Virus record (IMG/VR): IMGVR_UViG_3300031627_000002
Location: 1 to 43,669 of that record
From: a virus
Lineage: Duplodnaviria; Caudoviricetes
DNA: 43,669 bases
Strand: one strand, 5' to 3'
The notes under the pieces: model-generated
Database searches by the model: none
What the model saw: only the letters and a program-made list of their open reading frames with translations
Told to the model about the DNA's origin: nothing
Shown: positions 1-39,703 of the stretch, in pieces
Layout of the letters: each line of letters opens with the position of its first letter
Numbering within the stretch: position 1 is the stretch's first letter
Made by a program: the position numbers and the translations under genes

Positions 1-1
1 C

Positions 2-490
2 AGTAGCAAAGATCAAGCATGGCGAACACCAGCAGCCCTATACAACGCACTTGATAAAGAATTTGGCTTTACACTTGATGCGGCTGCAAGCCGCAACAAT
101 AAAAAATGTGAAAACTACCTAGGCCCCGATCACCCCAATCCAACCAAGCAAAATAGCTTAAAGGCTCATTGGCAGGGTACGGTATTCTGCAACCCACCAT
201 ACGGTAGAACAGTAAACCAATGGGTACAGCACGCCAAAGAACAAGCCCAGCAAGGCGCAACAGTTGTAATGATAGTAATGGCCTGCACAGATACAAACTG
301 GTGGCACGAACAAGCATGGAAAGCCGCAGAAATACGCCTAGTGCAAGGTCGTGTAAGCTTTAATAGAAGTAATGGCGAAAAAGCAGCAGCAGCACCCAAG
401 GGTAGCGCAATACTTATTTTTAGACCACACGTGCCACACAACGGCTACCCAGAAGGTCCAAGGGTGGTTAGCTGGCCATGCCCTAAATGA
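2..490 (+). CDS. dam: Phage DNA N6-adenine methyltransferase (Dam, T1-like/PF05869 type), 5'-truncated by window edge
   Basis: The frame of ORF 269..490 is open back to base 2. It reads SSKDQAWRTPAALYNALDKEFGFTLDAAAS...VFCNPPYGR...TDTNWW...GRVSF, with the W-x-TP, F-x-LDAAA and NPPY motifs of phage Dam. Confidence 0.9.
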   Translation, partial: SSKDQAWRTPAALYNALDKEFGFTLDAAASRNNKKCENYLGPDHPNPTKQNSLKAHWQGTVFCNPPYGRTVNQWVQHAKEQAQQGATVVMIVMACTDTNWWHEQAWKAAEIRLVQGRVSFNRSNGEKAAAAPKGSAILIFRPHVPHNGYPEGPRVVSWPCPK

Positions 491-509
491 ATAAGCTAAC
501 TACGTAGCG

Positions 510-1418
510 CTAAAGCCAAGAAGTTGGAACGTATTGCCATTCGTAGATCATTGCTTGCTTGATCCCGTACTTGGCTTCTACAGCGTTTAGGAACTCCAAA
601 AAGTCTGGCTTTGTCCACACACCAAAGGCATCCATTATTCCGCAGGCGTTGTGGGTTGTGTAGGGGGAAGCAACGCAAGCAGGGTTGGATAACGCTTCTA
701 CACTGAACATTGGCCATACGTTTGGTTGGCTTAACCATGCTTTGTGGTTTTCTAAATAACTGCCTATCTTTCCGTTTAGTAGATCTTTTGGGTTCCCGTT
801 GTTTTTACAGTATGGCGTGTTGGGGCAACGGCACTTTGGCCCTTTGTCGCCTTTACAGCCACATGCGGCCATTTCGCCTACCCAGTATATTTCGGGGTAA
901 CTTTGGTTGCCTTGGTCGTTTGGCGGTGGCCCTTTGGGGGCGTAGCCGTAGTCTAGTGGAACTGTTGGCCAATACTGCGCCCAAAGCTTTTCTATGTAGC
1001 TTTCGCCTTGCTTACCGTAGTACACGTTTACATTTTCATAATCAAAACCCAAACAAGTGATCTTATTGCTTCCACTGGAATTGTTTAGCTTAGTTATAAA
1101 CTGAAACGCTAGATCCATTGTGTCGTTTGGCTGGAAGGTAGCGGAAGATCCAACCCACGGCCATTTTGGCTCTGTGTCTAGCACTAGTCCTGCTTGGCAG
1201 GTTGCTGGCAATTGATCCAACCAATACTTTTGAAGCCAACCTTGCTTGGCGTAGGTTCCTGCTTTTATGTTTGGGTCCATTAGAATAAAGAACGCACGCT
1301 TTATGTTGTTGTCTTTAATAAACTTTACGTACTGGGCTGCGTATTCTTTAAAGGTTGCTTCGTCTGTTGCTGGCTTTCCAACTATTGCTTCGTGCCACAC
1401 ACCTAATTTCATAGTCAC
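510..1418 (-). CDS. Hypothetical protein (Trp/Cys-rich; possibly glycoside-hydrolase-like barrel)
   Basis: 302-aa ORF, probable ATG start at 1412. GFDYE weakly resembles the GH18 DxE motif; function unsupported beyond that. Confidence 0.65.
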   Translation of the reverse strand: MTMKLGVWHEAIVGKPATDEATFKEYAAQYVKFIKDNNIKRAFFILMDPNIKAGTYAKQGWLQKYWLDQLPATCQAGLVLDTEPKWPWVGSSATFQPNDTMDLAFQFITKLNNSSGSNKITCLGFDYENVNVYYGKQGESYIEKLWAQYWPTVPLDYGYAPKGPPPNDQGNQSYPEIYWVGEMAACGCKGDKGPKCRCPNTPYCKNNGNPKDLLNGKIGSYLENHKAWLSQPNVWPMFSVEALSNPACVASPYTTHNACGIMDAFGVWTKPDFLEFLNAVEAKYGIKQAMIYEWQYVPTSWL

Positions 1419-1585
1419 CTCTGCTACAGACTAGCCTGTGCTGAAATTTTATAAAGAAAAAAAAGCACTACGCATAGGGTGGGAGTTTTTTGAGAAATAT
1501 CCTGCGATGGTAGGTAAACGGCAGTGGCACCAAAACGGCAAAAAGCAAGGGGTGCCCCCTTGCAATTTGGTTTTGGGTTTTGGTT

Positions 1586-1648
1586 TTAGCTAACGCTGGC
1601 AGCGCAAGCTATAAGGGCGTTTAGGGTAGCAAAGTAAAGTAAAAACAT
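1586..1648 (-). CDS. Putative 20-aa hydrophobic micropeptide MFLLYFATLNALIACAASVS
   Basis: Manually translated. Preceded by AAAAGGATCTTACAATG, the same RBS-like string as before ORF 3375..3602 (AAAGGATCTTAAATG). Confidence 0.3.
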   Translation of the reverse strand: MFLLYFATLNALIACAASVS

Positions 1649-1680
1649 TGTAAGATCCTTTTATGGTTTAGGGGTAGGGT

Positions 1681-1705
1681 GCCAGCCCCCACAATAGGGG
1701 CTGGC
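1681..1705 (-). terminator. GC-rich hairpin just downstream of ORF 1715..2281
   Basis: GCCAGCCCC-CACAATA-GGGGCTGGC, a perfect 9-bp stem; no clear U-tract. Confidence 0.5.
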
Positions 1706-1714
1706 GGTTAGGGT

Positions 1715-2281
1715 TTACAGGCTACCGATCAAGGTTGCCAAGTTAGCCTGTATATAGCCAGCGGGATCGGCACTAAACGCCTTAGGATCGGCGGGCGTTA
1801 GCATAACGTGCCTTTGATCCGTGCTGGCATTGTAAAGCTTACCAGTAAAGCCCAAAGCAGTAGCGCTGCGTTGGCAAGTTTGATCCACGCGCCAGCCGTG
1901 CTGGTTATGCAACCAAGTTTTGTAAAGCGCTACCCATGGATCTGCACCTACTACCTGATCGCCTACCTTGTTTTGGTAGCCGCGCAAGATCAACCGATCG
2001 CCGTTAGGCGTTACGCTGCCAGCGGTACCAGCTACCGCAGCTAATAGCGCGGTTGCAAGCTTTACAACGGTATTGCGGTTAGGCATGCGTGCCTTTAGGT
2101 GCCTACCATGGCGGCTACCTGCACCAGCGGGCTGGCGGCTATTGTGCGCGGCTTGCATAACGGCGATCAGATCAACCTGTGCAGCCTGTGCGGCTAACTG
2201 CTGATCGGTAGGTTTAGCGGCTGCCTTTACAGCCTTGTTAGTGGTTTTAGTTTTAGCGGTTTTGGTTTTGGCGTTTGCCAT
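1715..2281 (-). CDS. Hypothetical early protein with Lys/Ala-rich N-terminus; Glu-free paralog of 7711..8277
   Basis: 188-aa ORF with promoter at 2333-2361 and RBS AAGGG. C-terminal TWLHNQHGWRVDQTCQRSA matches TWMKTQHGWKDNMTCGRSA of 7711..8277. Confidence 0.85.
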   Translation of the reverse strand: MANAKTKTAKTKTTNKAVKAAAKPTDQQLAAQAAQVDLIAVMQAAHNSRQPAGAGSRHGRHLKARMPNRNTVVKLATALLAAVAGTAGSVTPNGDRLILRGYQNKVGDQVVGADPWVALYKTWLHNQHGWRVDQTCQRSATALGFTGKLYNASTDQRHVMLTPADPKAFSADPAGYIQANLATLIGSL

Positions 2282-2332
2282 GGTAGTTACCCTTTGGTTT
2301 GCGTTTAGGCGTTAGTGCCTAACTGCCCTACG

Positions 2333-2361
2333 GTTATACAGGCAAACGGTTACGGTTGCAT
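2333..2361 (-). promoter_or_regulatory. Sigma70-like promoter (conserved phage early family)
   Basis: Minus strand ATGCAA-17 bp containing TAAC-TATAAC. Confidence 0.55.
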
Positions 2362-2518
2362 AGTTTTATTTTGGTTTTAGCGGTTTTATTTTGGTGGCAG
2401 GCTTGCAGTGCAGCCTTTTTATTTTTGATCAGCACGGGATCAAACCACCAGATCAGCACGGATCAACGGTGCGATCCTAACCTTATAACGGTTAGCAACA
2501 GTTAGCGATCTATAGGTT

Positions 2519-2618
2519 GCAAGATCGGGCGCTATATATAGGGCAAGATCGGGCGCTATATATATAGGGCGATCAAGGGTAGCGCCTAAACGCTGTACAG
2601 GTAGCAAGATCGGCGCTA
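2519..2618. repeat. Direct repeats GCAAGATCGGGCGCTATATATAGG (2 copies plus a partial third)
   Basis: Copies at 2519-2542, 2543-2569 and partial 2604-2618, inside a GATC cluster. Confidence 0.8.
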
Positions 2619-2805
2619 CGCCCTAACAGGTACCACGGTTAGGGTTAGCAACCGCAAGCCAGCACAAGCCAAACAAGCGCCACTAAGCGGCACACTGCAC
2701 AGGTGTACAGTAGCTAAACGGCTAACCTGTAAAGCGTTAGGTTGGCACGGGAATTGCAGTGTAGCAAGGTGCGTGCCAGATCAAAGATCGTGCCAAGTTT
2801 TTACC

Positions 2806-2940
2806 TGTACACTTGTACAGGTGTACGTTTATACAGGTGTACACTTGTACAGTACTGGATCTTTATACAGGTGTACACTTGTACAGTACTGCAAGCCTGT
2901 GCAGGTGTACGTTTGTACAGTACTGTATGCCTGTACAGTA
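2806..2940. repeat. TGTACA/GTAC palindrome-rich array with a 30-bp direct repeat
   Basis: TTTATACAGGTGTACACTTGTACAGTACTG at 2828-2857 and 2862-2891; many TGTACA and AGTACT palindromes. Confidence 0.85.
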
Positions 2941-2953
2941 TGCCAAAAAGCCA

Positions 2954-3033
2954 TAATGCAAATAGTGCAAATAGTGCAAATAGTGCAAAAGCAATAGTGC
3001 AAATAGTGCAAAAGGTGCAAATAGTGCAAAATA
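2954..3033. repeat. Tandem 9-mer AAATAGTGC array
   Basis: About 7-8 imperfect tandem copies of (A)AATAGTGCA. Confidence 0.85.
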
Positions 3034-3374
3034 AGGTCGTTGTACCGTGAGGTCGCTTTCTATTTTTTTGGGTCGCCCATTTTTGGGGTCGCTGTCCACG
3101 GTCTTTTTCCGCGTGGTCTTTGGTCGCTGTATAAGGTCGCGGTCCACGTTCTTTTTCCGCGGGACGGTCTTTTTCCGCGTGACCTTTTTTGCGGTCTACT
3201 TTTTTGCCACCTAAACCCAAACAAACATGACAAGCGAACGTCCTTATTCCTTGGTCGCTGTCTACCTAAAATGCTAATCTAAAGGTCGCGCTCTTTGTTT
3301 ATAAACAAAAGGGTGACCCTAACGACGCTACCAAAGCCGCTAAGGTCACCCGCACTGTTTGTCAGTGCCGTCCA

Positions 3375-3602
3375 CTACTCGATCCAGTCTACCTTCTGGT
3401 TCTCCGTGGGTTCAACTTCCGCTGCGATCACAGCCGACCCGCTAAACATACTAAGAGCAGCGAGTATAAGGGACGCCATAGAAACCACCAAACGGCGACC
3501 CCGTTGTTGTAGGCGTAGATCGGCAGGGAAGAAGTCTTTGTAAAGGGTAACGGCAAATATTGCCAAAGCAATGGTCACAATGTTTAAGGGTAGGTTGGTC
3601 AT
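3375..3602 (-). CDS. Small hypothetical membrane protein
   Basis: 75 aa with two hydrophobic stretches; RBS AAGGATC; promoter-like sequence at ~3659-3689. Confidence 0.6.
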   Translation of the reverse strand: MTNLPLNIVTIALAIFAVTLYKDFFPADLRLQQRGRRLVVSMASLILAALSMFSGSAVIAAEVEPTENQKVDWIE

Positions 3603-4103
3603 TTAAGATCCTTTAGTGGTTAGTGTTTAGTAGGTTAGCGCCCTTGCTAACCTATATATATAGTAACACAATACAGGTTATAGATGCTACCCATCACCGC
3701 AAGGTAGTAGGAGCAAGACCACACCGCACCAACCATACAGCGGACACATGACGGTCGCGCTCGGCGCCAGCCACACCAAGCCATACCAAGTAAGGACAGC
3801 GACCAACATAGCAACCATACAACATAACCAAGGGTCGGTGTCACCCGCTAAGCAAGCAGGTACTACAGCACAGGGGTCGCTGTCACCCAGGTTCCTCGGA
3901 CGAACACCCCCCCTATTTGTTTTGGGACATTGACTTGTCGAAACCGACAACCCCCCCCCATGACAAAGACCCAAGCCGCCCCTACTGTGGTCGGTGTCAC
4001 CCCCCTCTTAGTCATGGGGGACAGCACCCCCCCTATGAAGTCGCTATCCCCCCCTACTTATAACCAATGACCCCCCCCTATTAGAAGGGGGAAGTCTGCT
4101 ACC

Positions 4104-4502
4104 CTACAGCATGTGCTGTGTAATGCGACCGCTGCATAGCTGTTCTGTGTAACCAGGTCCCTTGGGGTCGGTGTAGGTGTACCATACGCCCTGTGCATTA
4201 CAGACATAAACGTAGTCGGCTTCCATGTTGCTTACCTCGCGACACAAACCTTCGCGGTTTAGCTGCTGCGCTGGACGCCAAAGTTCTTGTGGCATTGGCA
4301 TGACCTTATACCGTTCGCGCATGTGTTGGTCACCCTTACCAACTATAGCGAGCGCCCTTTCGTGGGTGTTGCAAACAAAGCGCAACCATTGCCCAAGTTC
4401 GGCGGGTGTCGCCCAAAAGGCGCAGTACATTGTAGTAAACTGGTTTGGCGCGGTCTGTACCGCAACTATTGCGCTTGTGTATTTTGTGGTGTCCATTGTC
4501 AT
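4104..4502 (-). CDS. Hypothetical phage protein, divergent paralog of 4753..5082
   Basis: Likely start MTMDTT at 4502 after AAGGG and promoter 4553-4581. TMYCAFWATP/ADYVYV align by eye with VIYCHYDGYP/ADFIYV. Confidence 0.7.
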   Translation of the reverse strand: MTMDTTKYTSAIVAVQTAPNQFTTMYCAFWATPAELGQWLRFVCNTHERALAIVGKGDQHMRERYKVMPMPQELWRPAQQLNREGLCREVSNMEADYVYVCNAQGVWYTYTDPKGPGYTEQLCSGRITQHML

Positions 4503-4552
4503 TGTATTGCCCTTAGTGGTTAGTGGTAGGTTGTAGCCCTTGCTACACCTAT

Positions 4553-4581
4553 AAGGTACCACACAACTGGTTAGCATACAA
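4553..4581 (-). promoter_or_regulatory. Sigma70-like promoter (conserved family)
   Basis: TTGTAT-GCTAACCAGTTGTGTGG-TACCTT. Confidence 0.55.
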
Positions 4582-4752
4582 CCACAGCCAAACCTTAGTA
4601 TGACAGTGACCAGCAAGAGGGCGACCCAGTAATAGCTAAACGCAACCATAAGGCGCTGGTCGCTGTCATTCAGATAACAATGGTCGCTGTCACACACAGT
4701 AGCCACAAAGCGACAGCGCGTTCAAGCACTGTCACCTTCTGTTGTGTCTGGC

Positions 4753-5082
4753 TTACTCTAGGTCCATAAAGCGGTGCTTGCGGTACACTGACCAACTTTG
4801 TGTGCTGGGATCAAAGACGTAAATGAAGTCAGCGTAATTCGTTGAGTCACTTATCCTCTTCAGTGTCCGTGCTGGGCTGCCACCGCCTAAAGGAATGGTA
4901 GTTCCATTACTAGCAATGGCCTTGAGGTCACCCCCGTCCATTAGCCGTTGTACGGCTGCGGTAGACCCAAACGAGTCTGCCAGCATCTTGCCAGTGTGCG
5001 ACGGGTAACCGTCGTAGTGGCAATAAATGACCTGGTATTCATTGTTGTTAATTTTGCGTGCTATTAGTGCTGGAGTCCCCAT
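4753..5082 (-). CDS. Conserved phage hypothetical protein (IYCHxDGYP family)
   Basis: Start MGTPALI at 5082. The YCHYDGYPSHTG motif is one I recognise as widespread among phage proteins of unknown function. Confidence 0.8.
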   Translation of the reverse strand: MGTPALIARKINNNEYQVIYCHYDGYPSHTGKMLADSFGSTAAVQRLMDGGDLKAIASNGTTIPLGGGSPARTLKRISDSTNYADFIYVFDPSTQSWSVYRKHRFMDLE

Positions 5083-5360
5083 TCGCTTGCCCTTTGGTGG
5101 TTGGTAGTTTGTAGCGGCTGCTACACTAATAATATAACACATTATGTAGTATTGAACTATATGTCCACTAAACATAGTGGGAAGGCGACCTCAAGGGTTG
5201 GGCGCGACAACGACCCGCACGCAAACCATATATATTAGCTGCACGAGGTCGCTGTCCCCTAGCTAAACTTACTTATAATAAGGGGGTCGCCTTCTTCCCG
5301 AGCGGATTGGTCGCTGTCTTTAGCACTGGGCAAGGTCTTGTGTCCCAGCACTGTCGCTTT

Positions 5361-5624
5361 CTACATAGGCTCTACCACTTCGCCCATCGCCCCTTTCGCG
5401 CAGTCCTCACATATCGTTATGTCTGGGCTTCTTGTTATTCCCGCACAGGTTGTGCAGAAGCAGGACTCCACCTTGTTCAGGCTGTAAGGGACATTGTGAC
5501 CCCAGCCAGCATAGAACCAGTGAAACACATCTTCAGCATCACTTTGTTCTGGTATCGCCTTCTCAATCTTCTTCTTGGTTCTTGGGCACGTAAAACCTAA
5601 GACCATTGGGTAGTCGCCTTCCAC
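5361..5624 (-). CDS. Hypothetical protein with CxxC pairs
   Basis: 87-aa ORF; CTTC and CEDC; AGGAGG upstream. Confidence 0.6.
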   Translation of the reverse strand: MEGDYPMVLGFTCPRTKKKIEKAIPEQSDAEDVFHWFYAGWGHNVPYSLNKVESCFCTTCAGITRSPDITICEDCAKGAMGEVVEPM

Positions 5625-5633
5625 TCTTCCTCC

Positions 5634-5723
5634 TTACCTGTCAAACAGGTCTGTTGTTAGTGTCCAGTAGCCGAGTGCTGCTAGTCCGATCAGCCCCCAT
5701 GACATTAGTATCGTTGTAATCAT
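5634..5723 (-). CDS. Small membrane peptide (29 aa)
   Basis: MITTILMSWGLIGLAALGYW...; RBS GGAGGG upstream of ATG at 5723. Confidence 0.5.
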   Translation of the reverse strand: MITTILMSWGLIGLAALGYWTLTTDLFDR

Positions 5724-5727
5724 TGAT

Positions 5728-5889
5728 TCACCCTCCTTGCTTACAAAGCTTGCGCGACTTCTGCCGCAGTGACTTCTCAATCGCCCTCTTATGCTTCCGC
5801 GCTTTCGCAGCGCTTCGGCCTCCCCCGCCTCTATGTGGTTGCCCATCAACGTCCTTACGGGACTTAAAAAGTTTCGCTTTACCTTTCAT
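5728..5889 (-). CDS. Small highly basic protein (53 aa), not in ORF track
   Basis: Manual translation MKGKAKLFKSRKDVDGQPHRGGGGRSAAKARKHKRAIEKSLRQKSRKLCKQGG*; RBS GGAGGG; fills the gap between neighbours exactly. Confidence 0.6.
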   Translation of the reverse strand: MKGKAKLFKSRKDVDGQPHRGGGGRSAAKARKHKRAIEKSLRQKSRKLCKQGG

Positions 5890-5892
5890 TGT

Positions 5893-6240
5893 CTAACCCT
5901 CCTGGTTCTTGTTCCAGCCAATTCGCCATGCTGTATATTCGTTGTCTGAGATCGTCCCTGCATCATGCAGGTCTGCCATCACTTCTGGGCTTGCTGTGTT
6001 GGTGTCAAGGTGTTCACGCCAGTCGTACCATCCGTATGCTCCCAAGTAGTCCTCTTCGCTTGCCTGCAATACATAGTTGCGTAAGACCTCGGCATCCATT
6101 GCCTCTTCTGCATCGCCTTCAATTAGCAGTCCTGCTTCCACTTGATCGCGCCTTGCAAAGTCTTCTTCCTCTTGCTCTTGCCACTCCCTGTATTCGGTAG
6201 GTGACATAAGCATTGGATCTTTAGGTTCCATGTCTAACAT
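5893..6240 (-). CDS. Small very acidic protein
   Basis: Start MLDMEPK at 6240, downstream of promoter 6294-6322; strongly D/E-rich. Confidence 0.75.
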   Translation of the reverse strand: MLDMEPKDPMLMSPTEYREWQEQEEEDFARRDQVEAGLLIEGDAEEAMDAEVLRNYVLQASEEDYLGAYGWYDWREHLDTNTASPEVMADLHDAGTISDNEYTAWRIGWNKNQEG

Positions 6241-6293
6241 TTCTATTTCCCTTTGGTGGTTTGCTAAGGTACTTGATCGCGCCTTGCCTATAT

Positions 6294-6322
6294 ATAATAC
6301 GCCACAGGTTATTAAGATGCAA
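6294..6322 (-). promoter_or_regulatory. Sigma70-like promoter (conserved family)
   Basis: TTGCAT-CTTAATAACCTGTGGCG-TATTAT, 17-bp spacer. Confidence 0.75.
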
Positions 6323-7000
6323 TAGTCTTTATGTTTTAGTATGACCAGCCGAAAAAGCGAAACGCAGGACGGCGACCCCGCAAGTGCTACCCCCACACGG
6401 GGAAGACACCAGACAGCGACCAACCATAATAGTAGTATACAAACAGGTCGCTGTCACCTATCTAGCAGATCGCGGTCAGCAGGTCGCTGTCCACGCCAGA
6501 AGTTGACTTTCAACGGTCACTTTAGTCAGGTCGCGGTCGTCAGGTCGCCTTCTGTGTGTCAGGGGTCGCCTTCCCCCAAAGAGGTCGCCATCCTTTTTCC
6601 CAAGAGTCTTTTTTTTGGTCGCCCTCCTTTTTCCCAAGAGTCGCCTTCTACTTTTTTGGCGTGGTCGCTGTCTTACCTTTTTTGCCTAGGGTCTATTTTT
6701 TTTGGAGTTTTCCGAATGGAAACTTGGTCGCAGTCTAACTTTTTTTAGCGGTTCAGGTCGCTGTCCTTTCTCCTACTTTTCCAAAAACCCTCCCTTTATA
6801 GACACAGACCACAGACAGCGACCACGAATGGAATGAAAGCGACCACAAAGGGTACACCTCCAAAGACCTAGGTCGGCTTCCCGCAGGCTCGCAGTCGTGC
6901 TTTTTCTGAGTGGAGGGTAAAGACCTCACGCCCGATGGTTGGCAAATCGCCTTTTTTACCCGACCTTCATTCACGAAGACGAGTGTATGTCTAAACCTTC

Positions 7001-7039
7001 GTTATTTGGACTATTTTCATTATTTAGACTATTTGGACT
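7001..7039. repeat. Tandem 9-mer array (minus strand AAATAGTCC/T)
   Basis: TTATTTGGACTATTTTCATTATTTAGACTATTTGGACT; an inverted relative of the 2954-3033 array. Confidence 0.6.
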
Positions 7040-7626
7040 TTCCCTATCTTTCATTTACGCGAGGGTCGTTTGCGCTCCCTGTTTTGCGCGAGAGGTCTTC
7101 CCTGTTGCCTTTAGTGTTCTTCACCCATTAGATAGCGGTCGTTATCGCTTACATTCCTTTATACTTTACCGCCTCAGATAGCTTCTGACACCGTCTACGT
7201 ACAACATTGGGGGCATAGGGTACCCACCGCATACAGACAGCCTTAGATTGGCATCAAAGCGCCATTAGAACGAGTCTACCCACAAGTTGCATTCATGGTA
7301 CCCATACTCAGTCTGCGCAAGACAATAGGATAAAGACTATACGGTCTACCCGACCATGTAGTTCCCAGTGCGTATACAGGGGGTCGTGTTCACCCAACCG
7401 TATCTGAAGGAAGCAGTGCCTATGTCTGTCGTATAGGTAGTCTTTTCTAAACTGAGTATGGATAGTTCTTGTAACCGACAAGCCCCCCCCTATTGGAAAA
7501 GCGTAGTCTATATGAGTATGCGTAGACCAACCCCCCCCTACATGAGTAAGAGCATATACATATGGTCGTTTTCTATACCCCCCCTACTTAGACACCCTTT
7601 GTCTTTAGTAGTTTCATTTCCATAAT

Positions 7627-7664
7627 AAAAAGAAAGCCCCGCTCACGGTAAAGTGAACGAGGCT
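7627..7664 (-). terminator. Rho-independent terminator downstream of 7711..8277
   Basis: Minus strand AGCCTCGTTCAC-TTTACC-GTGAGCGGGGCT (G:U pairs) followed by TTCTTTTT. Confidence 0.75.
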
Positions 7665-7710
7665 GGTGAGGGGTATTAGACCTACTACCATTCAAGCTGT
7701 GCTTGTCTGG

Positions 7711-8277
7711 CTATTCGGGGAAACTCACTCCTTCTGGTGCAAGCAGCACTCGTCGTTGCTTCGGATCTTTATTCGTCACCAACTTATAGTTCGGGTATCC
7801 GTTAGCAATCGCGGATCGCCCGCATGTCATGTTATCTTTCCACCCGTGCTGTGTCTTCATCCAAGTTTCAGCCAACGTCGCACCCATAATGTCCTCCTGG
7901 GTAAGTTCCACAACGCCTTCCTTACTCACGCGTCCTGCCGCGATTGCAGTTTCAATAGCTACTTGGAACTTGTTGATGGTTGCGCTTCGTGCCATACGCC
8001 CGTCACGCCTCTTGATCTCACGTACAAACCGAGCAGTATCCTCACCGTCAATGCGGTTCACTTCCAGTTTCGCTGCCTTGGCTTCCGCTTCCACCATATC
8101 AGCAAGGTTCAACGGTACTGTCACGCTCTGCGTTTGCTGCAACGTGCGGAAGAATAAGTTCGCCGCCGTAGCGTTCGCTGCCGCTTGTGCCTTAGTTGAC
8201 TTCTTCTGTGCCAGTGGAAGGCTGGTTGCCTTCTTACCTGAACTCTTTACTGCTGCCTTCTTTTGTGCTTTTGCCAT
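7711..8277 (-). CDS. Hypothetical early protein, Lys/Ala-rich N-terminus (possible DNA binding); paralog of 1715..2281
   Basis: 188 aa; RBS GTAGGAGG; promoter 8344-8372; downstream terminator. Confidence 0.85.
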   Translation of the reverse strand: MAKAQKKAAVKSSGKKATSLPLAQKKSTKAQAAANATAANLFFRTLQQTQSVTVPLNLADMVEAEAKAAKLEVNRIDGEDTARFVREIKRRDGRMARSATINKFQVAIETAIAAGRVSKEGVVELTQEDIMGATLAETWMKTQHGWKDNMTCGRSAIANGYPNYKLVTNKDPKQRRVLLAPEGVSFPE

Positions 8278-8343
8278 GTTGTCCTCCTACAGACTATGTG
8301 TTGGCTAAATGACGGAAAAACCTAACGCCCTCCATCTGTATAT

Positions 8344-8410
8344 ATAATACCACCAAGGTTACAAGGATGCAACCCTTCTAGCGATCTTGGTGCGACATGC
8401 GTATGTCGCT
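8344..8410 (-). promoter_or_regulatory. Promoter plus upstream palindromic operator-like cassette
   Basis: TTGCAT-17-TATTAT with extended -10 TG; 8380-8410 matches 8793-8823 at 29/31. Confidence 0.8.
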
Positions 8411-8417
8411 GTTTGGT

Positions 8418-8708
8418 TCATGCATCACCTCCAAAGGATTCGCCCAGTTCTAATACAAAAAGCGGGTCGTACTCCAGACATGCTTCCTGCTGTGCCTTGT
8501 CTTTCACGATTCCAAACTTAGTGTCGCCTGATAGCGTGCATCTTGTGCAGACCCACATGAACTTCCCTTTTCGGGAAATCTCTACTGCTGCTGGACCTGC
8601 GGAGAGTTCGCATGGGCAACCCCCACGGCATTCGCATCGCTTCAAGTAAGCCTCTGGAAAGATGGCTTGGATCTCTTCTTCTTCTGTGGTTGGTGTAATC
8701 GTTGACAT
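8418..8708 (-). CDS. Hypothetical Cys-rich (Zn-binding) protein
   Basis: Start MSTITP at 8708; CECRGGCPC and CTRC. Confidence 0.7.
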   Translation of the reverse strand: MSTITPTTEEEEIQAIFPEAYLKRCECRGGCPCELSAGPAAVEISRKGKFMWVCTRCTLSGDTKFGIVKDKAQQEACLEYDPLFVLELGESFGGDA

Positions 8709-10517: not shown

Positions 10518-10562
10518 TTCTAATCCCTTGGTAGTTTTCGCAGCGGTTTTGCTACTGTATAT

Positions 10563-10591
10563 ATACTACCACAAAGGTTAGGGTGATGAAA
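10563..10591 (-). promoter_or_regulatory. Sigma70-like promoter (conserved family)
   Basis: TTTCAT-CACCCTAACCTTTGTGG-TAGTAT. Confidence 0.6.
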
Positions 10592-17770: not shown

Positions 17771-17812
17771 TTGCTCTCCTTTGTTATTGGTTTTTTTACC
17801 GCTTTACAAAGT

Positions 17813-17841
17813 ATAATACCACGTATAAGGTTAGATAACAA
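17813..17841 (-). promoter_or_regulatory. Sigma70-like promoter (conserved family)
   Basis: TTGTTA-TCTAACCTTATACGTGG-TATTAT. Confidence 0.7.
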
Positions 17842-30416: not shown

Positions 30417-30503
30417 ATTGCCCTCCTACTGGCATTACTTTTATAGGGTTAGGTTTTGCTTTACACAACATAAATAACGTATGGGTGGGACAAAATATGT
30501 CCG

Positions 30504-30894: not shown

Positions 30895-30938
30895 ATTGCC
30901 CTCCTACAAGCATTATAAATAGTGTACCCCAATAGTGG

Positions 30939-31166
30939 TTATTTTGCAACCACTAATTTTGGTAGAACTATATTTTTGCCGACAAGAGATGATTTCTTCA
31001 AATCACTACGTTTAAAGTCACTTATTTCACTATAGCTTGTGCGAACACCTTCATGCTTTACTGATACTTTGTACAGTGCTTGCTTACCTATGAAAAACCT
31101 ATCAATAACGACACCTATGTTACCATCTGGCGTCATAACCTCATCATGCAAATTGATTCTAGCCAC
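30939..31166 (-). CDS. Small SH3/KOW-like hypothetical protein
   Basis: 75 aa; DEVMTPDGNIGVV; GGAGG RBS. Confidence 0.6.
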   Translation of the reverse strand: MARINLHDEVMTPDGNIGVVIDRFFIGKQALYKVSVKHEGVRTSYSEISDFKRSDLKKSSLVGKNIVLPKLVVAK

Positions 31167-32811: not shown

Positions 32812-32858
32812 CTTTTGTGCGGTTTTAATGCAAACTACCTATATGTATATGTAGCCCT

Positions 32859-32905
32859 TAAAAAAAGCCCCCACCAGATTGTTAAAAAGCGGTCTGATGG
32901 GGGCA
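32859..32905 (-). terminator. Rho-independent terminator on minus strand
   Basis: GCCCCCATCAGAC...ATCTGGTGGGGGC followed by T7. Confidence 0.7.
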
Positions 32906-33010: not shown

Positions 33011-34606
33011 TTGAATGATTTAATTGCAAATGGATTGTATCACCCTTGCGTTACGGCATCAAGTAAAGCAAGCAGTATTGACACAGAGTACCAATTTGCT
33101 TTTAATTCGATCAAAAGATCTGTCTGCACGAGAAGTGCCGTATCTAATGCAGGGAAAGCCCTACTTTGGGTAATGGGGGAATTGAAAGCCCATCAAATAC
33201 AAGAAGTTAAGTCTGGGTATTGGTATTTAGAACTTTGCCCTACTTATTTGTCATCAATACCATCTGTCACTAGATGGGCGGCTGGTAACGCATGGAAGCA
33301 AATCAAAAAAGATTTAGGCTGGACTGAGGTTTCCTTATCTAGTGCTGCCTCAATGGGGGCAAAGATAAGGAAACTATCGTTTGGCCAAAAGTGGGGAAGG
33401 CATATACTTCTCACCACTAAAAATAAGTGCTTTCTGTTAGAGGTAGCCCGCAGGTTCAGGCACGCTGGTTTTTTTGAACGGTTCAGTGGGCCTAAGAGCG
33501 CCTCAAAGGTATTTATTGGCACGGTGCCAATACCCGCCAAGTTGCGAGCATTACAAGGGCATATAGGGAAGCGCACGGCTGCTGCTAAGTGCCCTAATAC
33601 CAAAGCCCATAAACACGCAGATAAGTCACCATCTCTAATACTGTGGCGCACTGGTAATGAGCATAAAAGTGGAGCTAAATGTTTTACCTGCGAGAAAACA
33701 TATGCTGTGGAGTATTCTGACAGCAAAGCCAGATTGTTTACACCACATAAAACGACATTTGTTGGCACCCAAACTACTGTAACTACTAAAAAACCCAGAC
33801 ACCAGCACAATAATAACCTACTAGCTAAAGGATCTAATCCTATAGGTGGTTTAGTCTCTACAGTTAAAGCAAACAATAGCTATCTTAGTGCTAAGCTTTT
33901 TAGCTATATTACAGACAATACAGGGTACACAACCAGAAGCATTGGGCATAAACTCCAGAATGAGCCAATACAAATACTAAAATGGTCTGAAGCTCGCAGC
34001 AAAGGGGCTAAATCAACAGATATAGCCCTTACAATTCAGCGCCTTTATAGTAAGGATGTAAGCCAAGGGCAAAAGCACATACTCCCAACCTCTCTATGCT
34101 CTGTCTCGCAAATGAAGCCTACTGAATGGGAGGAAGCATCGTTTGGTATTAGGCCATCTAAGTGGGGTGCTTTTAGGCAATCGTGGGTATTGTTTGATCT
34201 AGATAATATAGCGGGCTTGGGGGAAGATCTATCTCCAATAATCAATAGTATTGAGTCCAATATTGGATCTAATAGTGAGTGTAGTGGGCGCAGCGCCATA
34301 GTCCAAACTGGCCCATCTGGTATTCAAATTTGGGTGGAGCTTAGGGAGAATAGATTCAATCCAAACGCTTGGTTTGCAAACAAGGATGTTAGGGTTTGGT
34401 ATTCGCACCTAGGCGCGAAGTTGCTAAATAGTTTTCACGAAATTGGGTGTATCGGTGGAAAAGTAGACATGGCTTGCTTTGCTGCGGGAAGGTTTGGCAG
34501 AAGGCCAGGGTGGAGACTACTGCCTACTGGAAATGTATTCAGGTCTAGATTAGTTAGTACCCAATGCGAGAGAGTTAGGTTCGCCCGTAATCATCCTCGA
34601 TCCTGA
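33011..34606 (+). CDS. Large hypothetical protein; Zn finger plus possible AEP/Prim-Pol-like C-terminal domain
   Basis: 531 aa; CPN..H...CFTC; VLFDLD and QTGPSGIQIWV resemble AEP motifs I and II. Confidence 0.6.
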   Translation: MNDLIANGLYHPCVTASSKASSIDTEYQFAFNSIKRSVCTRSAVSNAGKALLWVMGELKAHQIQEVKSGYWYLELCPTYLSSIPSVTRWAAGNAWKQIKKDLGWTEVSLSSAASMGAKIRKLSFGQKWGRHILLTTKNKCFLLEVARRFRHAGFFERFSGPKSASKVFIGTVPIPAKLRALQGHIGKRTAAAKCPNTKAHKHADKSPSLILWRTGNEHKSGAKCFTCEKTYAVEYSDSKARLFTPHKTTFVGTQTTVTTKKPRHQHNNNLLAKGSNPIGGLVSTVKANNSYLSAKLFSYITDNTGYTTRSIGHKLQNEPIQILKWSEARSKGAKSTDIALTIQRLYSKDVSQGQKHILPTSLCSVSQMKPTEWEEASFGIRPSKWGAFRQSWVLFDLDNIAGLGEDLSPIINSIESNIGSNSECSGRSAIVQTGPSGIQIWVELRENRFNPNAWFANKDVRVWYSHLGAKLLNSFHEIGCIGGKVDMACFAAGRFGRRPGWRLLPTGNVFRSRLVSTQCERVRFARNHPRS

Positions 34607-34922
34607 TTATATCACCATCGTCAAATGTGCTTACTTCAGCAACAATAACAAAATCACCTTCATCGGCAGCACCCATTCTATGAGGGGTTCCAGGGGGTAT
34701 ATGGGCGTACATTCCTGGGCTTAATTCATAAGTCACATTGTTTTTCTCGAAAATCATTGTTCCGTACAAGACTATTACTGTTTCTTCCTTGTATTGGTGG
34801 AATTGTAATGACATTCTTTGGCCACTTTCTATACGCATAATCTTCCCAGTATATTTCCCAGGAACGTTTGCCCAAATTAGTGTTGAACCCCAAGGGGAAT
34901 GTTTAGTATTACCCTCACTCAT
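34575..34922 (-). CDS. Cupin, mannose-6-phosphate isomerase (type II C-terminal)-like
   Basis: SPWG, GQRMSLQFHQYKEE, IPPGTPHR, EVST and DIIRIEDDYGR. Confidence 0.85.
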   Translation of the reverse strand: MSEGNTKHSPWGSTLIWANVPGKYTGKIMRIESGQRMSLQFHQYKEETVIVLYGTMIFEKNNVTYELSPGMYAHIPPGTPHRMGAADEGDFVIVAEVSTFDDGDIIRIEDDYGRT

Positions 34923-35952
34923 TAGCCGCTGTCTTTTCTATTGATGGCCAAAGCTTGCGTTCAAGTTTGTTCTGTTGAGGCTTTGCATGTACAGATTTAA
35001 TTACTTCTAAATCTTTAAGATTTGGGCTGACTAATTTAGGTAAAAGACCAGCCCTTGTACCACTTCCTGCATTACACCGATCACAAGGGCTAAATCCACG
35101 TTCTTTCTTCTGTAGGAACCTACGTGCAGCAGTAAACTCTGAACCCCACCAAATTTGCTTTAGGCTTCTTTCGTTAGCATTTCCGCAAGTATATTCATGA
35201 CCCCAATCCATACAGCAGATGTTTACGTTACCATTATAGCAAACGGTAATCTCCCTAAATGGCTGAGTACACGTTCTACTGTACGGCTGTTCAGGTATTG
35301 GTTGGTCAGCAGCATTTCCAGCGTGGTTCATCAATGTACGAGAACCACTCTCCCCAGACCTGATCCCTATGTCATCCATTACTATTATTAAGCCCGTCTT
35401 TTTACGGTGATAATTATAGTAAGGGGAAATCCCAGCAGGAATACAATCATCATAAAAATCCATTACTTCAAATCGAGTACATGACTTAGCAAGCTGCTGA
35501 AGCTTGGATCTTTCTGGCTCATATGTATCTAATATTATTATATCAATACCAGCGTCAAAGGCACGGACGGCGTAACCCTCCACTGCATTTTCATGTTTCT
35601 TTGATCGCATCCAATTGCGACCATTAGTTGTTAGTTGGAATTGTGTGTGTGGTAACTGTTCCCTAAAAATACCAACGATTTCTTCCCAATCTGGGTTTAG
35701 AGTAGGCTCGCCGTGCATGGCAAACTCAACCCTAGCCTTTGGGCAAAGTTCCTTTAATTGTAAAGCTACCTTTTTAGCCAAAGGGATGCTCATATAATGG
35801 TACGGCATCCCAGCTTTAGATCTAATTCCATTTAAACCACAGAATGAACAAAGCTTATTACAACCTTCTGTAAGCTCTAATTGTACAGACCATGGCGCAT
35901 GTAGACCCTCTCCCTTACCTTTGCCTATTTTCTTTTTTTTCAAAAACCCCAT
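34915..35952 (-). CDS. Radical SAM protein with SPASM/twitch domain
   Basis: CNKLCSFC, HGEPTL, TTNG; C-terminal CTQPF...GNVNICCMD...C..C. Confidence 0.88.
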   Translation of the reverse strand: MGFLKKKKIGKGKGEGLHAPWSVQLELTEGCNKLCSFCGLNGIRSKAGMPYHYMSIPLAKKVALQLKELCPKARVEFAMHGEPTLNPDWEEIVGIFREQLPHTQFQLTTNGRNWMRSKKHENAVEGYAVRAFDAGIDIIILDTYEPERSKLQQLAKSCTRFEVMDFYDDCIPAGISPYYNYHRKKTGLIIVMDDIGIRSGESGSRTLMNHAGNAADQPIPEQPYSRTCTQPFREITVCYNGNVNICCMDWGHEYTCGNANERSLKQIWWGSEFTAARRFLQKKERGFSPCDRCNAGSGTRAGLLPKLVSPNLKDLEVIKSVHAKPQQNKLERKLWPSIEKTAANE

Positions 35953-36665
35953 TAGATCGCCAACAAGATTTCATCTTTACGCTTAGGGTTGTCCTTCAAC
36001 ATTCCAGGCCACTTATCTTTTAATTGTTTGATTGTAGCTTGCTCTAGATCACTTGTTCTGTAGTCGCAAGCACCACCCTTGTTTGTACGATGAGCGAATG
36101 TAGCCAACACTGCATTGCACCTAGCAATAGAACCGTACTTCATTAAGTGTTGGATTGTATAATCATAGTCTTCTTTCAATCTTAGATCTTCATCGAACCG
36201 CAAACTTGTCGGCTTGACTGCTATAAAATCGCCCACAACGAAAGCACTTGTATGTACGGGCTTGTTTGGATTGAAAAAGAAAGCATTAGCAGTAGGGGCA
36301 ACACCAACCATTCGAGAACCAGTGCTGTCCAATGCTTTAAACATTAAGCGAACTGCATCATCAAGTGTAGCCTCATGTTTTTCAGCTTTATTTGTCGCAA
36401 TTTCTAATTTACGCAAGTCATCGCTCAATTCAATAGCAGGCAGATCCATTGCAAAAGAGTCATCTAAAATAGCATTACGGCTACGGCATAATCCACCAGA
36501 TTCAATAACTTTGGTGGCACCCATCATTTCGTATTGCTTTGCTTCGCCAGCCCCTACGTACCAAGTCAAAGGCCCGCACATCTTCTCCATTTTGGTTACA
36601 TTTTTAGCTCTCTTATGAGAGATCACGCCAATGAATACTTTCACACCGCCAATACGCCTAATCAT
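35952..36665 (-). CDS. GT-A fold glycosyltransferase (TET-associated/GREB1-like)
   Basis: ISHKRA, SRNAI, LSDD, KEDYDY and KGG pattern; directly downstream of a TET/JBP gene. Confidence 0.72.
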   Translation of the reverse strand: MIRRIGGVKVFIGVISHKRAKNVTKMEKMCGPLTWYVGAGEAKQYEMMGATKVIESGGLCRSRNAILDDSFAMDLPAIELSDDLRKLEIATNKAEKHEATLDDAVRLMFKALDSTGSRMVGVAPTANAFFFNPNKPVHTSAFVVGDFIAVKPTSLRFDEDLRLKEDYDYTIQHLMKYGSIARCNAVLATFAHRTNKGGACDYRTSDLEQATIKQLKDKWPGMLKDNPKRKDEILLAI

Positions 36666-37551
36666 TATTTTCTCCAGGTTCTAACAAGCCTCTGCTTTTA
36701 GCTTTTTCCAACTCGCCCAAAGGTGAATCACACCCAAGGATTCCTTCTCTATAATAATGGACAACTGTAATGCGTTCCCAGTCAACCTTTTCTTCACCCA
36801 CTGTAGCGTAAGGGGGTGTGTTCCCGTGCCAGACAACTGGATTGAAAACAACCACATCCCCATGCTTCATATCTATTGCAAACCTATACTCTGGAATGAC
36901 CAACTCAAAACCACTATATTCCCCTTTACGGAAACAAAGCATACAACCCATCCCATCCTTCAAATCTCCACCATCTTGGTGGTAAGCAGAAGGGACACAG
37001 TTATTGATTGTTAATGTTGTAAAGGGTGTCCCTGGGATTACCCAAGCTTGGTGTGTTTTTTCAACATAGGCCATTTGGTCTTTGTATTTATTTGGGGCAA
37101 CATCTTTGAATACTTTTGCTACCTCTCTCAAACAGGGCTGGATGGCATCCCACTTTTCAGGGTGGTGTTGTAAGAAGGCTGTTTGGCGGCAAAAAGGGTG
37201 GCGACCACCTTGCGCTTCAAAAAACCCAGCCACACAACTAGAAACATTACTAGTCCTCGTTTGGCGCGAAACAGTACCATCTGGACGAACATTGGGAACG
37301 CGAGACTCTCCAGCATATACGCCACGGTTATCGCTTTTAAAGCGCTTCATGTAATGGTAAGTTTCGTATGACTGATCTAAAGCTTCTTTAGATATAGCGC
37401 CCCTTCGGTACCCTATAATAAGTGTCCCATCAGGTGCATATACATCGCAAGATTCAGTCAGCACAAAAGAATAATGTTCTTTAGGGGGGTGCTTCCCTTT
37501 CCAGGGGCGTACTTGTTCTTCTGGAATCTTAGATCGGACAGCTATTCTCAT
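36658..37551 (-). CDS. TET/JBP-family 2OG-Fe(II) dioxygenase (DNA base oxidation)
   Basis: TPFTTLTIN, HQDGGD (HxD), WHGNTP and RITVVHYYRE, the hallmark arrangement of phage TET/JBP. Confidence 0.88.
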   Translation of the reverse strand: MRIAVRSKIPEEQVRPWKGKHPPKEHYSFVLTESCDVYAPDGTLIIGYRRGAISKEALDQSYETYHYMKRFKSDNRGVYAGESRVPNVRPDGTVSRQTRTSNVSSCVAGFFEAQGGRHPFCRQTAFLQHHPEKWDAIQPCLREVAKVFKDVAPNKYKDQMAYVEKTHQAWVIPGTPFTTLTINNCVPSAYHQDGGDLKDGMGCMLCFRKGEYSGFELVIPEYRFAIDMKHGDVVVFNPVVWHGNTPPYATVGEEKVDWERITVVHYYREGILGCDSPLGELEKAKSRGLLEPGENND

Positions 37552-38210
37552 TTAATATCACCCGCTGCCTCTTGAATTGTTTTGTATACAGTGTCGGTAA
37601 TATTATCTGTATCGTGCTTTTTAGAGAGGGTGTTTACCCACATTTGGAAAATTGGCGCTGTTTCTTCATTAAGGAAGAGCTGAACCATCCTAACACTGCT
37701 ATTCGGCATATCTTTAGGTTGTGTCCCATCTGGTATTTCTGGGCCAGTTTGCCCAACATACCCTTCTTCTGGAGGTAACATACTAAGGCTTTCTAGATCT
37801 GTCTCAAACTGAGAAAGCAACCCCTCAAGTTCTTCACCACTAAAACCTAGTGAGGTTGCATCAAATTCATCACCAAGGGCAGACAGGGCTTGAATATGGC
37901 TTGACAATACTTGTTCATCCCAACCAGCCAATTCGCCACTACGGTTTAGGGAGATTGATAGCTTACGTGCATCCTCATCAGAGACATCCAGTAAAACCAC
38001 CTGCACATGGGTATTCCCAAGCTTTTTCATTACACTAAGGCGACCATTTCCACCAATCACTTTCATGCTACTGGCTTGGACGACAAGTGGTTCAACCTGA
38101 CCATGGGCTTCCAAGGAAGCACTAATCGCCGCTAGGTTCTTCTCATCATGGACTCTTGGGTTTGCATCATCAGGGACAAGTTTCTTGATAGCAACATTTT
38201 GTACATTCAT
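37548..38210 (-). CDS. ParB/Srx N-terminal-domain protein
   Basis: NPRVH, SLEAHGQVEPLVV, IGGNGRL and LNR..GWD. Confidence 0.82.
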   Translation of the reverse strand: MNVQNVAIKKLVPDDANPRVHDEKNLAAISASLEAHGQVEPLVVQASSMKVIGGNGRLSVMKKLGNTHVQVVLLDVSDEDARKLSISLNRSGELAGWDEQVLSSHIQALSALGDEFDATSLGFSGEELEGLLSQFETDLESLSMLPPEEGYVGQTGPEIPDGTQPKDMPNSSVRMVQLFLNEETAPIFQMWVNTLSKKHDTDNITDTVYKTIQEAAGDIK

Positions 38211-39618: not shown

Positions 39619-39703
39619 TAGCTTTCTCCTACTTGCTTTTAGGGTGGGCAGCTTAAAAGCGCACCTATAGCCCTACTATTAAGTGAAGATAACTTGTCTT
39701 TAA

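Follow-up and report, generated by a model that had tools for sequence, protein, structure and literature searches.

What makes a phage gene give up glutamate altogether? The question is raised by the gene for P0001, a protein encoded in IMG/VR virus record IMGVR_UViG_3300031627_000002 (Duplodnaviria; Caudoviricetes), of which positions 1 to 43,669 were analysed and are here called the window. The window is a 43.7 kb phage fragment, 58% complete, whose sequence occurs in seawater metagenome runs, one of them possibly the source of the record and two belonging to other studies; no RNA run is among the sequencing runs listed as carrying it. An earlier sequence-only reading had noted that P0001 contains no Glu and that its nine Asp residues are all followed by Gln, Leu, Arg or Pro, and had proposed that a constraint on the DNA, under strong selection, overrides the choice of amino acids. 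Our analyses support this proposal: the gene lies in an island in which GA and TC are, with one exception, absent outside GATC, the island is real and strongly selected, and it is probably part of a design general among phages. Proteins, loci and genome records compared with the window carry P-, L- and G-numbers, respectively. The DNA word scored throughout is GA/TC outside GATC, called a forbidden step.

The Glu-free gene and its island

Both amino acid observations proved correct. P0001 uses neither GAA nor GAG, and the probability of zero Glu by chance is 6e-7 given the window Glu frequency of 7.3%. All nine Asp codons, read on the minus strand, are GAT before a codon starting with C (DQ four times, DP three times, DL and DR once each), whereas the other 21 genes of the window have GAT+C in 58 of 379 Asp codons (15%). 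A D-H pair is also compatible with the rule and is present in P0006. Codons never used in P0001 are GAC, GAA, GAG, TCN, GGA, AGA, CGA, TTC, CTC and GTC. In 5,000 synonymous recodings of the gene, forbidden steps numbered 36 ± 4.6 with a minimum of 22, and none is observed. The plus-strand frame of the same interval is interrupted by four stops.

The purged region extends well beyond the coding sequence (Table 1), and the second-longest run free of forbidden steps in the window measures 102 bp. The island has a GC content of 49% and contains 26 GATC sites versus 5.9 expected, 14 of them non-coding, at a density of 17 per kb compared with 4 per kb elsewhere. The rule holds on both strands and for 750 bp upstream of the gene, and on the sense strand of the gene TC occurs 0 times versus 16 expected. 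What is avoided is a dinucleotide, GA/TC, rather than a restriction site of 4–8 bp, and the palindrome GATC is enriched. Being two-stranded, present upstream of the gene and partly followed at other promoter-like sites, the rule acts at the DNA level.

The elements of the unit are arranged in the order promoter-like site, AAAGGG, gene, hairpin, 20-codon open reading frame (ORF) and terminator-like site, and the clean zone stops about 40 bp beyond the last of these. For the ribosome-binding site (RBS), the sequence-only reading had given AAGGG in place of an AGGAGG used elsewhere. The RBS is AAAGGG; AAGGG is not unique to this gene, since it also occurs near 4500, 5081, 6243 and 10517; GGAGG is used at 8277, 24444 and 30416. 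The promoter claimed for the gene was not recovered by a sigma-70 scan of 1300–5400, which returned one site versus 3.6 expected and did not have the P0001 promoter among its matches, but inspection by eye located a promoter-like site, whose TAACC element recurs at other promoter-like sites. The claimed downstream hairpin is real, though it has no T tail. By eye, small ORFs like the 20-codon one also lie 3' of the gene in G001, L006 and L008, and the GCAAATAGT repeat likewise marks L006 and L008.

Next to the island, GGTCGC/GCGACC occurs 19 times in 3038–5400 (8 per kb versus 0.5 per kb outside it), predominantly in a single orientation. This array makes the adjacent plus strand TC-rich (23 TC and 5 GA in 3038–3300), and comparable arrays border the gene in L005, L006, L008 and G002.

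Homologs and selection

The P0001 profile gave 13 matches, of which P0019 and P0020 were discarded because repeats drove the match; alignment A3 was made without P0021. In a separate set of nine homologs, eight lack Glu. Eight metagenome loci comprise the window itself, four islands (L004–L007), one ortholog without an island (L008) and two paralog-type genes without an island. In the P0001 coding sequence, 38% of single-base changes would make a forbidden step. The genes of L001, L005 and L006 differ from it by 98, 159 and 188 bases, and have 0 forbidden steps versus 37–72 expected; the rule is kept in island homologs at 45–86% protein identity, and other public runs cover the island with diverged copies. 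As the sequence-only reading held, the gene is thus not low-complexity junk, the rule having been kept through 98–188 substitutions.

Homologs outside islands use Glu and unconstrained Asp, which agrees with a constraint on the DNA and not on the protein. The earlier reading had named the opposite result, Glu-free homologs outside islands with the same Asp bias, as one that would refute it, and this check left the proposal standing. L008 has the same upstream repeats as the window, no island, eight Glu and none of its six Asp as GAT+C. The homolog mentioned in the earlier reading exists as a paralog in the window, 34.5% identical over 108 query residues. Three orthologs that are known from protein sequence alone, P0008, P0011 and P0012, contain 6, 12 and 7 Glu, respectively, and DNA for the Glu-rich P0011 was not found in viral contigs. 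Because such orthologs exist, a P0001-type protein need not lack Glu. The earlier reading had asked whether conserved Glu is replaced by Gln, Asp or Ala. In P0001, the 25 columns with Glu in three Glu-bearing orthologs are filled by Ala (7), Asp (5), Thr (3), Val (2), other residues (7) and one gap.

Predicted properties of P0001

P0001 belongs to no Pfam family and has no tblastn match in GenBank phages. The ESM Atlas gave no usable match for it; for the paralog-type domain, the matches were limited to unnamed clusters below 0.9. AlphaFold models, with mean predicted local distance difference test (pLDDT) values of 66.6 and 71.4, have an alpha-beta-beta-alpha-alpha-beta-beta core. The best VIA-align match, a weak one, is a chain of the African swine fever virus RNA polymerase (Z 4.2, root-mean-square deviation 3.8, 88 aligned), and comparison with HSF, CRP, CodY, SarA and RepE gave Z 3.0–3.9 (RepE 3.2), a weak likeness to winged-helix proteins. 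Foldseek searches of viral and PDB libraries gave no match at E ≤ 0.001, the best being the HSF1 DNA-binding domain at E 0.26; winged-helix proteins recur among the weak fold-search matches. P0001 is predicted to be a DNA-binding protein. Its domain is also found behind a HEXXH-bearing domain in P0015 and P0017 (motif by eye), and at the end of the NYN protein P0021.

Genomic context

Some members of the PF05869 Dam family methylate GATC, and a member of this family is encoded beside the island. We propose that it is the source of the GATC exemption. The window also encodes a DNA-modification cassette with ParB, a TET/JBP dioxygenase and a TET-associated glycosyltransferase. A C5 methyltransferase (PF00145) is absent from the window, G001, G006 and G008 and present in G007, and Pfam revealed no deazaguanine genes in the window. 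In relatives the gene order is island, Dam, small genes, terminase and portal; a single contig of G001 (94% complete) carries the end of the island together with Dam, TerL and the cassette.

Depletion of GA/TC is not confined to the island. On the Dam-terminase side, the observed/expected ratio rises from 0.3 to about 1.0 over about 10 kb (L022, L021, L019); on the other side of the island, GA/TC density is back to normal within about 2.5 kb. With codon usage controlled, the flanking genes of the window have free GA at 0.27–0.54 and free TC at 0.26–0.45 of expectation. Among the next-longest clean runs, 10 of 14 are minus-strand intergenic leaders, most with a GTG(G/T)TA-type -10 motif. Around motif-defined promoters, GA/TC has 0.45 times the frequency expected from shuffling both in the window (5 sites) and in G001 (4 sites); the value for G002 (7 sites) is 0.65. 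In each of these three small samples, none of 300 shuffles was as low. Five promoter-motif matches in Escherichia phage CAjan gave 0.92. Contig depth over 1–8500 showed no sign of termini, which depth is unable to reveal.

Three other features of these genomes were observed. The lone plus-strand ORF of the window at 33011–34606 (531 aa, Cys/His motif, no Pfam match) has GA/TC at 0.72–0.75, and is possibly a replication-initiation gene needed early; by eye, its apparent counterpart in G031 (L205:6438-7904) is the most depleted gene of that genome. A 302-aa minus-strand ORF without a Pfam match lies between Dam and the island (510–1418); it is absent at that place in L001/L002 and was not found in G001–G004. 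Between TET and glycosyltransferase, G001 (L026:3735-5674) and G002 (L029:9804-11743) carry two inserted genes that are absent from the window, one of them again ParB-like and the other encoding a 420-aa protein with a Cys motif.

Table 1. Features of the island and related elements in the window
Feature	Position	Strand	Remarks
Dam-family N6-adenine methyltransferase	2–490	plus	PF05869, E 1.4e-34; NPPY motif; cut by window start
Island	1507–3037		1,531 bp; no GA/TC except in GATC; sole exception GAA at 2751
Terminator-like hairpin	1545–1563		T tails on both strands; ~40 bp inside left edge of island
Small ORF	1586–1648	minus	20 codons, hydrophobic; RBS uses GGATC; by eye
Hairpin	1681–1705	minus	9 bp, GC-rich, immediately past stop codon, no T tail; by eye
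P0001 gene	1715–2281	minus	188 aa, basic, isoelectric point 10.4; K/T/A-rich N-terminal tail; 0 Glu
RBS	2290–2295	minus	AAAGGG, GA-free
Promoter-like site	2333–2361	minus	ATGCAA-17-TATAAC; read by eye, missed by consensus scan
Non-coding upstream part of island	2420–3037		short repeats (GATC-containing units, TGTACA, GCAAATAGT); by eye
Short GA/TC-free promoter-plus-leader run (example)	3600–3683	minus	
Further such runs	4500–4602, 5084–5154, 6249–6316, 10539–10585, 17778–17834, 30425–30489, 30903–30965, 32812–32877, 39628–39685		
P0001 paralog	7711–8277	minus	outside island; 12 Glu; GGAGG RBS
DNA-modification cassette	34575–38210	minus	includes radical SAM/SPASM and cupin
TET-associated glycosyltransferase	35952–36665	minus	27.0 bits, just below the 27.5 cut-off
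TET/JBP dioxygenase	36658–37551	minus	PF12851; adjoins ParB
ParB	37548–38210	minus	

Relatives of the TET dioxygenase

The TET alignment found 218 relatives, of which 80 were kept; 77 of the loci were new, and 13 records were fetched. Only three of the new loci, L041, L042 and L046 (TET 52–57%), have GA/TC-free runs above 150 bp. Among the fetched records, only G006 (100% complete, TET 52%) contains a large island; runs of 153–165 bp are present in G022 and G024, and those of the other ten do not exceed 85 bp. Three cultured phages with distant TETs (27–32%) have no GA/TC-free run above 91 bp.

The island of G006 follows a different version of the rule. Its bases 1–1554 contain 25 GA/TC versus 134 expected and no GATC, and no adenine methylase was found in this genome by matches to PF05869, PF02086 or PF01555. 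The island gene, a remote homolog of P0001 (hhalign E 2e-5), is partly purged (9 GA, 13 TC, 2 Glu) and spells all six of its Asp GAC, with none as GAT+C, whereas L006, which is GC-rich to a similar degree, has six of six as GAT+C (Fisher p 0.002). The Dam-less G006 thus avoids GA/TC without a GATC exemption. In G006 and in the complete genome G007, the genes after TET encode a P-loop kinase and an amino-acid:DNA transferase. These two enzymes, together with the lack of a C5 methyltransferase in the window, G001 and G006, point to T as the substrate.

Past the G006 island, degenerate GGACACGG-type repeats with a TC-free, GA-rich plus strand fill L119:1554-3500, about 2 kb. Several GC-rich relatives (L127-L128 of G008, L159, L164-L166, L183) are nearly GATC-free genome-wide (0.0–0.5 per kb), the opposite of the window island.

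Other purged words in terminase relatives

The TerL alignment led to 48 viral loci and three in metagenome-assembled genomes (MAGs). Twelve further records were fetched, whole or for the most part (80,000 of 80,695 bases in G037, 40,000 of 44,899 in G036 and 40,000 of 44,624 in G041), and none of them encodes a TET of the window's group. Four of the twelve have islands near the terminase that obey other rules, each holding one complete gene, and six have no purged stretch. The G042 island, directly upstream of terL, is AG/CT-free over 1,438 bp (L212:14374-15812); its long, Ala/Thr/Asp-rich gene avoids CTN, AGN, AAG, CAG and GAG codons, and the genome encodes ParB and a GT1 glycosyltransferase. 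G035 has an island free of CC/GG except in CCCG, which spans the record ends (L211:12929-14500, L208:1-930); the 23 leftover CC in 1,572 bp are all within C runs ending in CCCG. That genome has genes for a Mom-family protein and for ParB fused to an N6/N4 methylase, and its island gene has an ordinary paralog that is weakly similar to the P0001 family (E 2e-4, probability 47%). In G038 and L191, ACY/RGT is absent over up to 1,942 bp. The G041 island (L242:14560-16447) is strand-specific: template-strand G is nearly always beside another G, with 2 lone G versus 216 lone C in 1,880 bp, and this polarity fits transcription.

Each of the six island types is found no more than about 12 kb from terL. 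On the TerL tree, the rules have a scattered distribution (FastTree; no formal test). The records of G001, G005, G006, G035 and G038 begin or end inside an island. G025, with a 66% GC genome, is GGG-free on one strand over 2,288 bp (L229:13401-15689). The TerL relatives (46–47%) in the three MAGs carry three different labels, one of them Myxococcales, and were not accepted as evidence of the host.

Proposed mechanism and alternative explanations

We consider it likely, giving it about an even chance, that the island is a starter unit kept unmodified by avoidance of the thymine hypermodification at TC that the phage is predicted to make on its own DNA, with Dam methylation shielding GATC. Once the DNA is replicated, the ParB-TET pair would oxidize the T of TC; a sugar added by the glycosyltransferase would then give a base-J-like mark. 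The T of GATC would pair with Dam-methylated adenine and the mark would be blocked there, so that GATC would be the sole safe spelling of Asp, of Ile after G and of a GGA-type RBS. The mark would hinder promoter opening and early elongation, and promoters would avoid it locally. The first unit would avoid it wholly, giving up Glu, and host RNA polymerase could read this unit from the incoming virion DNA. P0001 would be a starter copy, with the paralog as its normal duplicate, that helps the marked remainder of the genome to be read. In relatives whose cassettes differ, the purged word would differ likewise. With slightly less confidence, we suggest that this clade of tailed phages swaps hypermodification cassettes and rewrites one starter unit near the terminase for each cassette target of 2–3 bases. 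A methylase would carve out exempt sites (GATC, perhaps CCCG in G035), the missing word would reveal the specificity of the enzyme, and the starter protein would let marked DNA be transcribed.

Base J of trypanosomes has been proposed to hinder RNA polymerase. Its synthesis likewise proceeds by TET/JBP oxidation of T and then glycosylation; base J occurs at few loci, whereas here the mark would be genome-wide and control would lie in where the target word is missing. Restriction sites are avoided in the first-entering DNA of some phages, as in the first-step transfer region of T5 and the early region of T7. As the island may be, these are terminal-type regions with an early gene purged of a recognized word, but here the word has 2–3 bases, whole amino acids are lost, a methylase site is exempt and the word is likely that of the phage's own enzyme. 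Among phage thymine dioxygenases, 5mYOX97 is ParB-independent with an NTC preference and 5mYOX176 is ParB-dependent and prefers NTG/NTA, with weak activity data; T specificity at the dinucleotide level was shown for the tested members (PMC13229309). Clade C1 of the 5mYOX enzymes resembles the window in having ParB by PF12851, a glycosyltransferase or a kinase and amino-acid transferase downstream and no C5 methylase, but the accessible part of that report describes neither a motif-free genome region nor a Dam exemption (PMC13229309). CAjan carries dPreQ0 at GA and GGC (PMC7544227) and thus, like the window phage with its predicted mark, has its own DNA marked at the dinucleotide GA; unlike CAjan, the window has no deazaguanine genes, and its island is not short of GGC, which is common there. 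Searches of open-access PMC and bioRxiv text turned up no paper on such islands.

Several observations weigh against the starter unit. The primase and helicase genes are near-normal in GA/TC, so that elongation through marked DNA cannot be fully blocked. By eye, the window TET looks like the ParB-dependent class, whose tested member prefers NTG/NTA on weak activity data. The Dam contrast comes from one Dam-less genome with only 2.9 GATC expected in G006 1–1554, and the Dam status of L006 is open. There is no island in G007 (TET 45%, kinase, transferase, Dam and C5 methylase), in G034 and G037 with deazaguanine genes, or in the GA-modifying CAjan, whose longest clean run is 80 bp. By indirect evidence, the cluster of the Glu-rich ortholog P0011 seemingly shares an 80,536-bp contig with a paralog like that of G002 (TET 81%). 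A modification cassette was not seen in G038 or in 40 kb of G041, and the specificity of the G035 and G042 cassettes is not established. In the TerL tree, G006 has as its sister G031, a genome that encodes DpdA-type proteins but lacks a TET and is nevertheless poor in GA/TC (17 GA/TC versus 75 in its best 800-bp window, with no clean island), so that the purged word may follow host or ancestry.

The shared avoidance in the TET phage G006 and its TET-less DpdA sister is what a host nuclease, deaminase or DNA ADP-ribosyltransferase could produce if it attacks unmodified GA/TC, is blocked by N6-methyladenine at GATC and meets this end of the DNA first. The depletion fading over about 10 kb on the Dam-terminase side would reflect timed exposure, the existence of cassette-bearing relatives that have no island fits as well, and words would differ because hosts differ. 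Such an attack would nevertheless leave unexplained why promoters 15–37 kb away avoid the same step, the remaining genome is full of GA/TC, and neither such an enzyme nor the host was identified, so that we consider it unlikely. A shade less probable is that the phage avoids its own mark to escape a host modification-dependent nuclease or glycosylase acting on the first-entering DNA, until P0001 disables this defense. The same cassette and Dam evidence as for the starter unit would apply, and islands near terL and at record ends and the one-sided gradient fit; however, the template-strand-only rule of G041 and the avoidance at promoters fit a polymerase better, termini and entry order are not established (repeats alone can break assemblies there), and P0001 has an ordinary paralog and does not resemble known inhibitors.

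The upstream repeat arrays, the proximity to terL and the weak winged-helix likeness, including that to RepE (Z 3.2), would also suit a packaging or replication control site that needs unmarked DNA for its binding proteins, with the gene recoded because it lies inside. This is improbable: the clean zone ends at 1507, just past the terminator at 1545, and so follows the transcription unit, and binding sites do not require the purging of 567 coding bases. Escape of the mRNA from a CmdT-like toxin, which ADP-ribosylates GA in single-stranded RNA, is less probable again. CmdT modifies the N6 of A in GA of mRNA, including the Shine-Dalgarno sequence (10.1101/2024.02.24.581662), and the RBS of P0001 is GA-free. 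The two-strand symmetry, with sense-strand TC equally absent, largely refutes this reading; moreover, the clean zone reaches 750 bp upstream, and in RNA there would be no Dam mark by which GAUC could be spared. It is hardly credible that the island reflects low complexity, biased mutation or faulty assembly, even though its upstream part is repetitive: its GC content is 49%, it recurs in independent contigs, and the substitution counts in diverged relatives refute this reading.

Implications

Escaping a two-base word genome-wide is called implausible in the CmdT preprint (10.1101/2024.02.24.581662). The island described here shows that locally, at the price of some amino acids, a phage can escape such a recognition word. 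Should the phage itself make the mark, the starter unit would address two matters raised by work on thymine dioxygenases (PMC13229309): the open question why there is hypermodification that is post-replicative and sequence-specific, and how incoming DNA that bears the mark is initially read. The predicted enzyme targets would then be TC outside methylated GATC for the window TET, AG/CT for G042 and CC/GG for G035. If this is true, the missing word would give the specificity of uncharacterized DNA-modifying enzymes from sequence alone.
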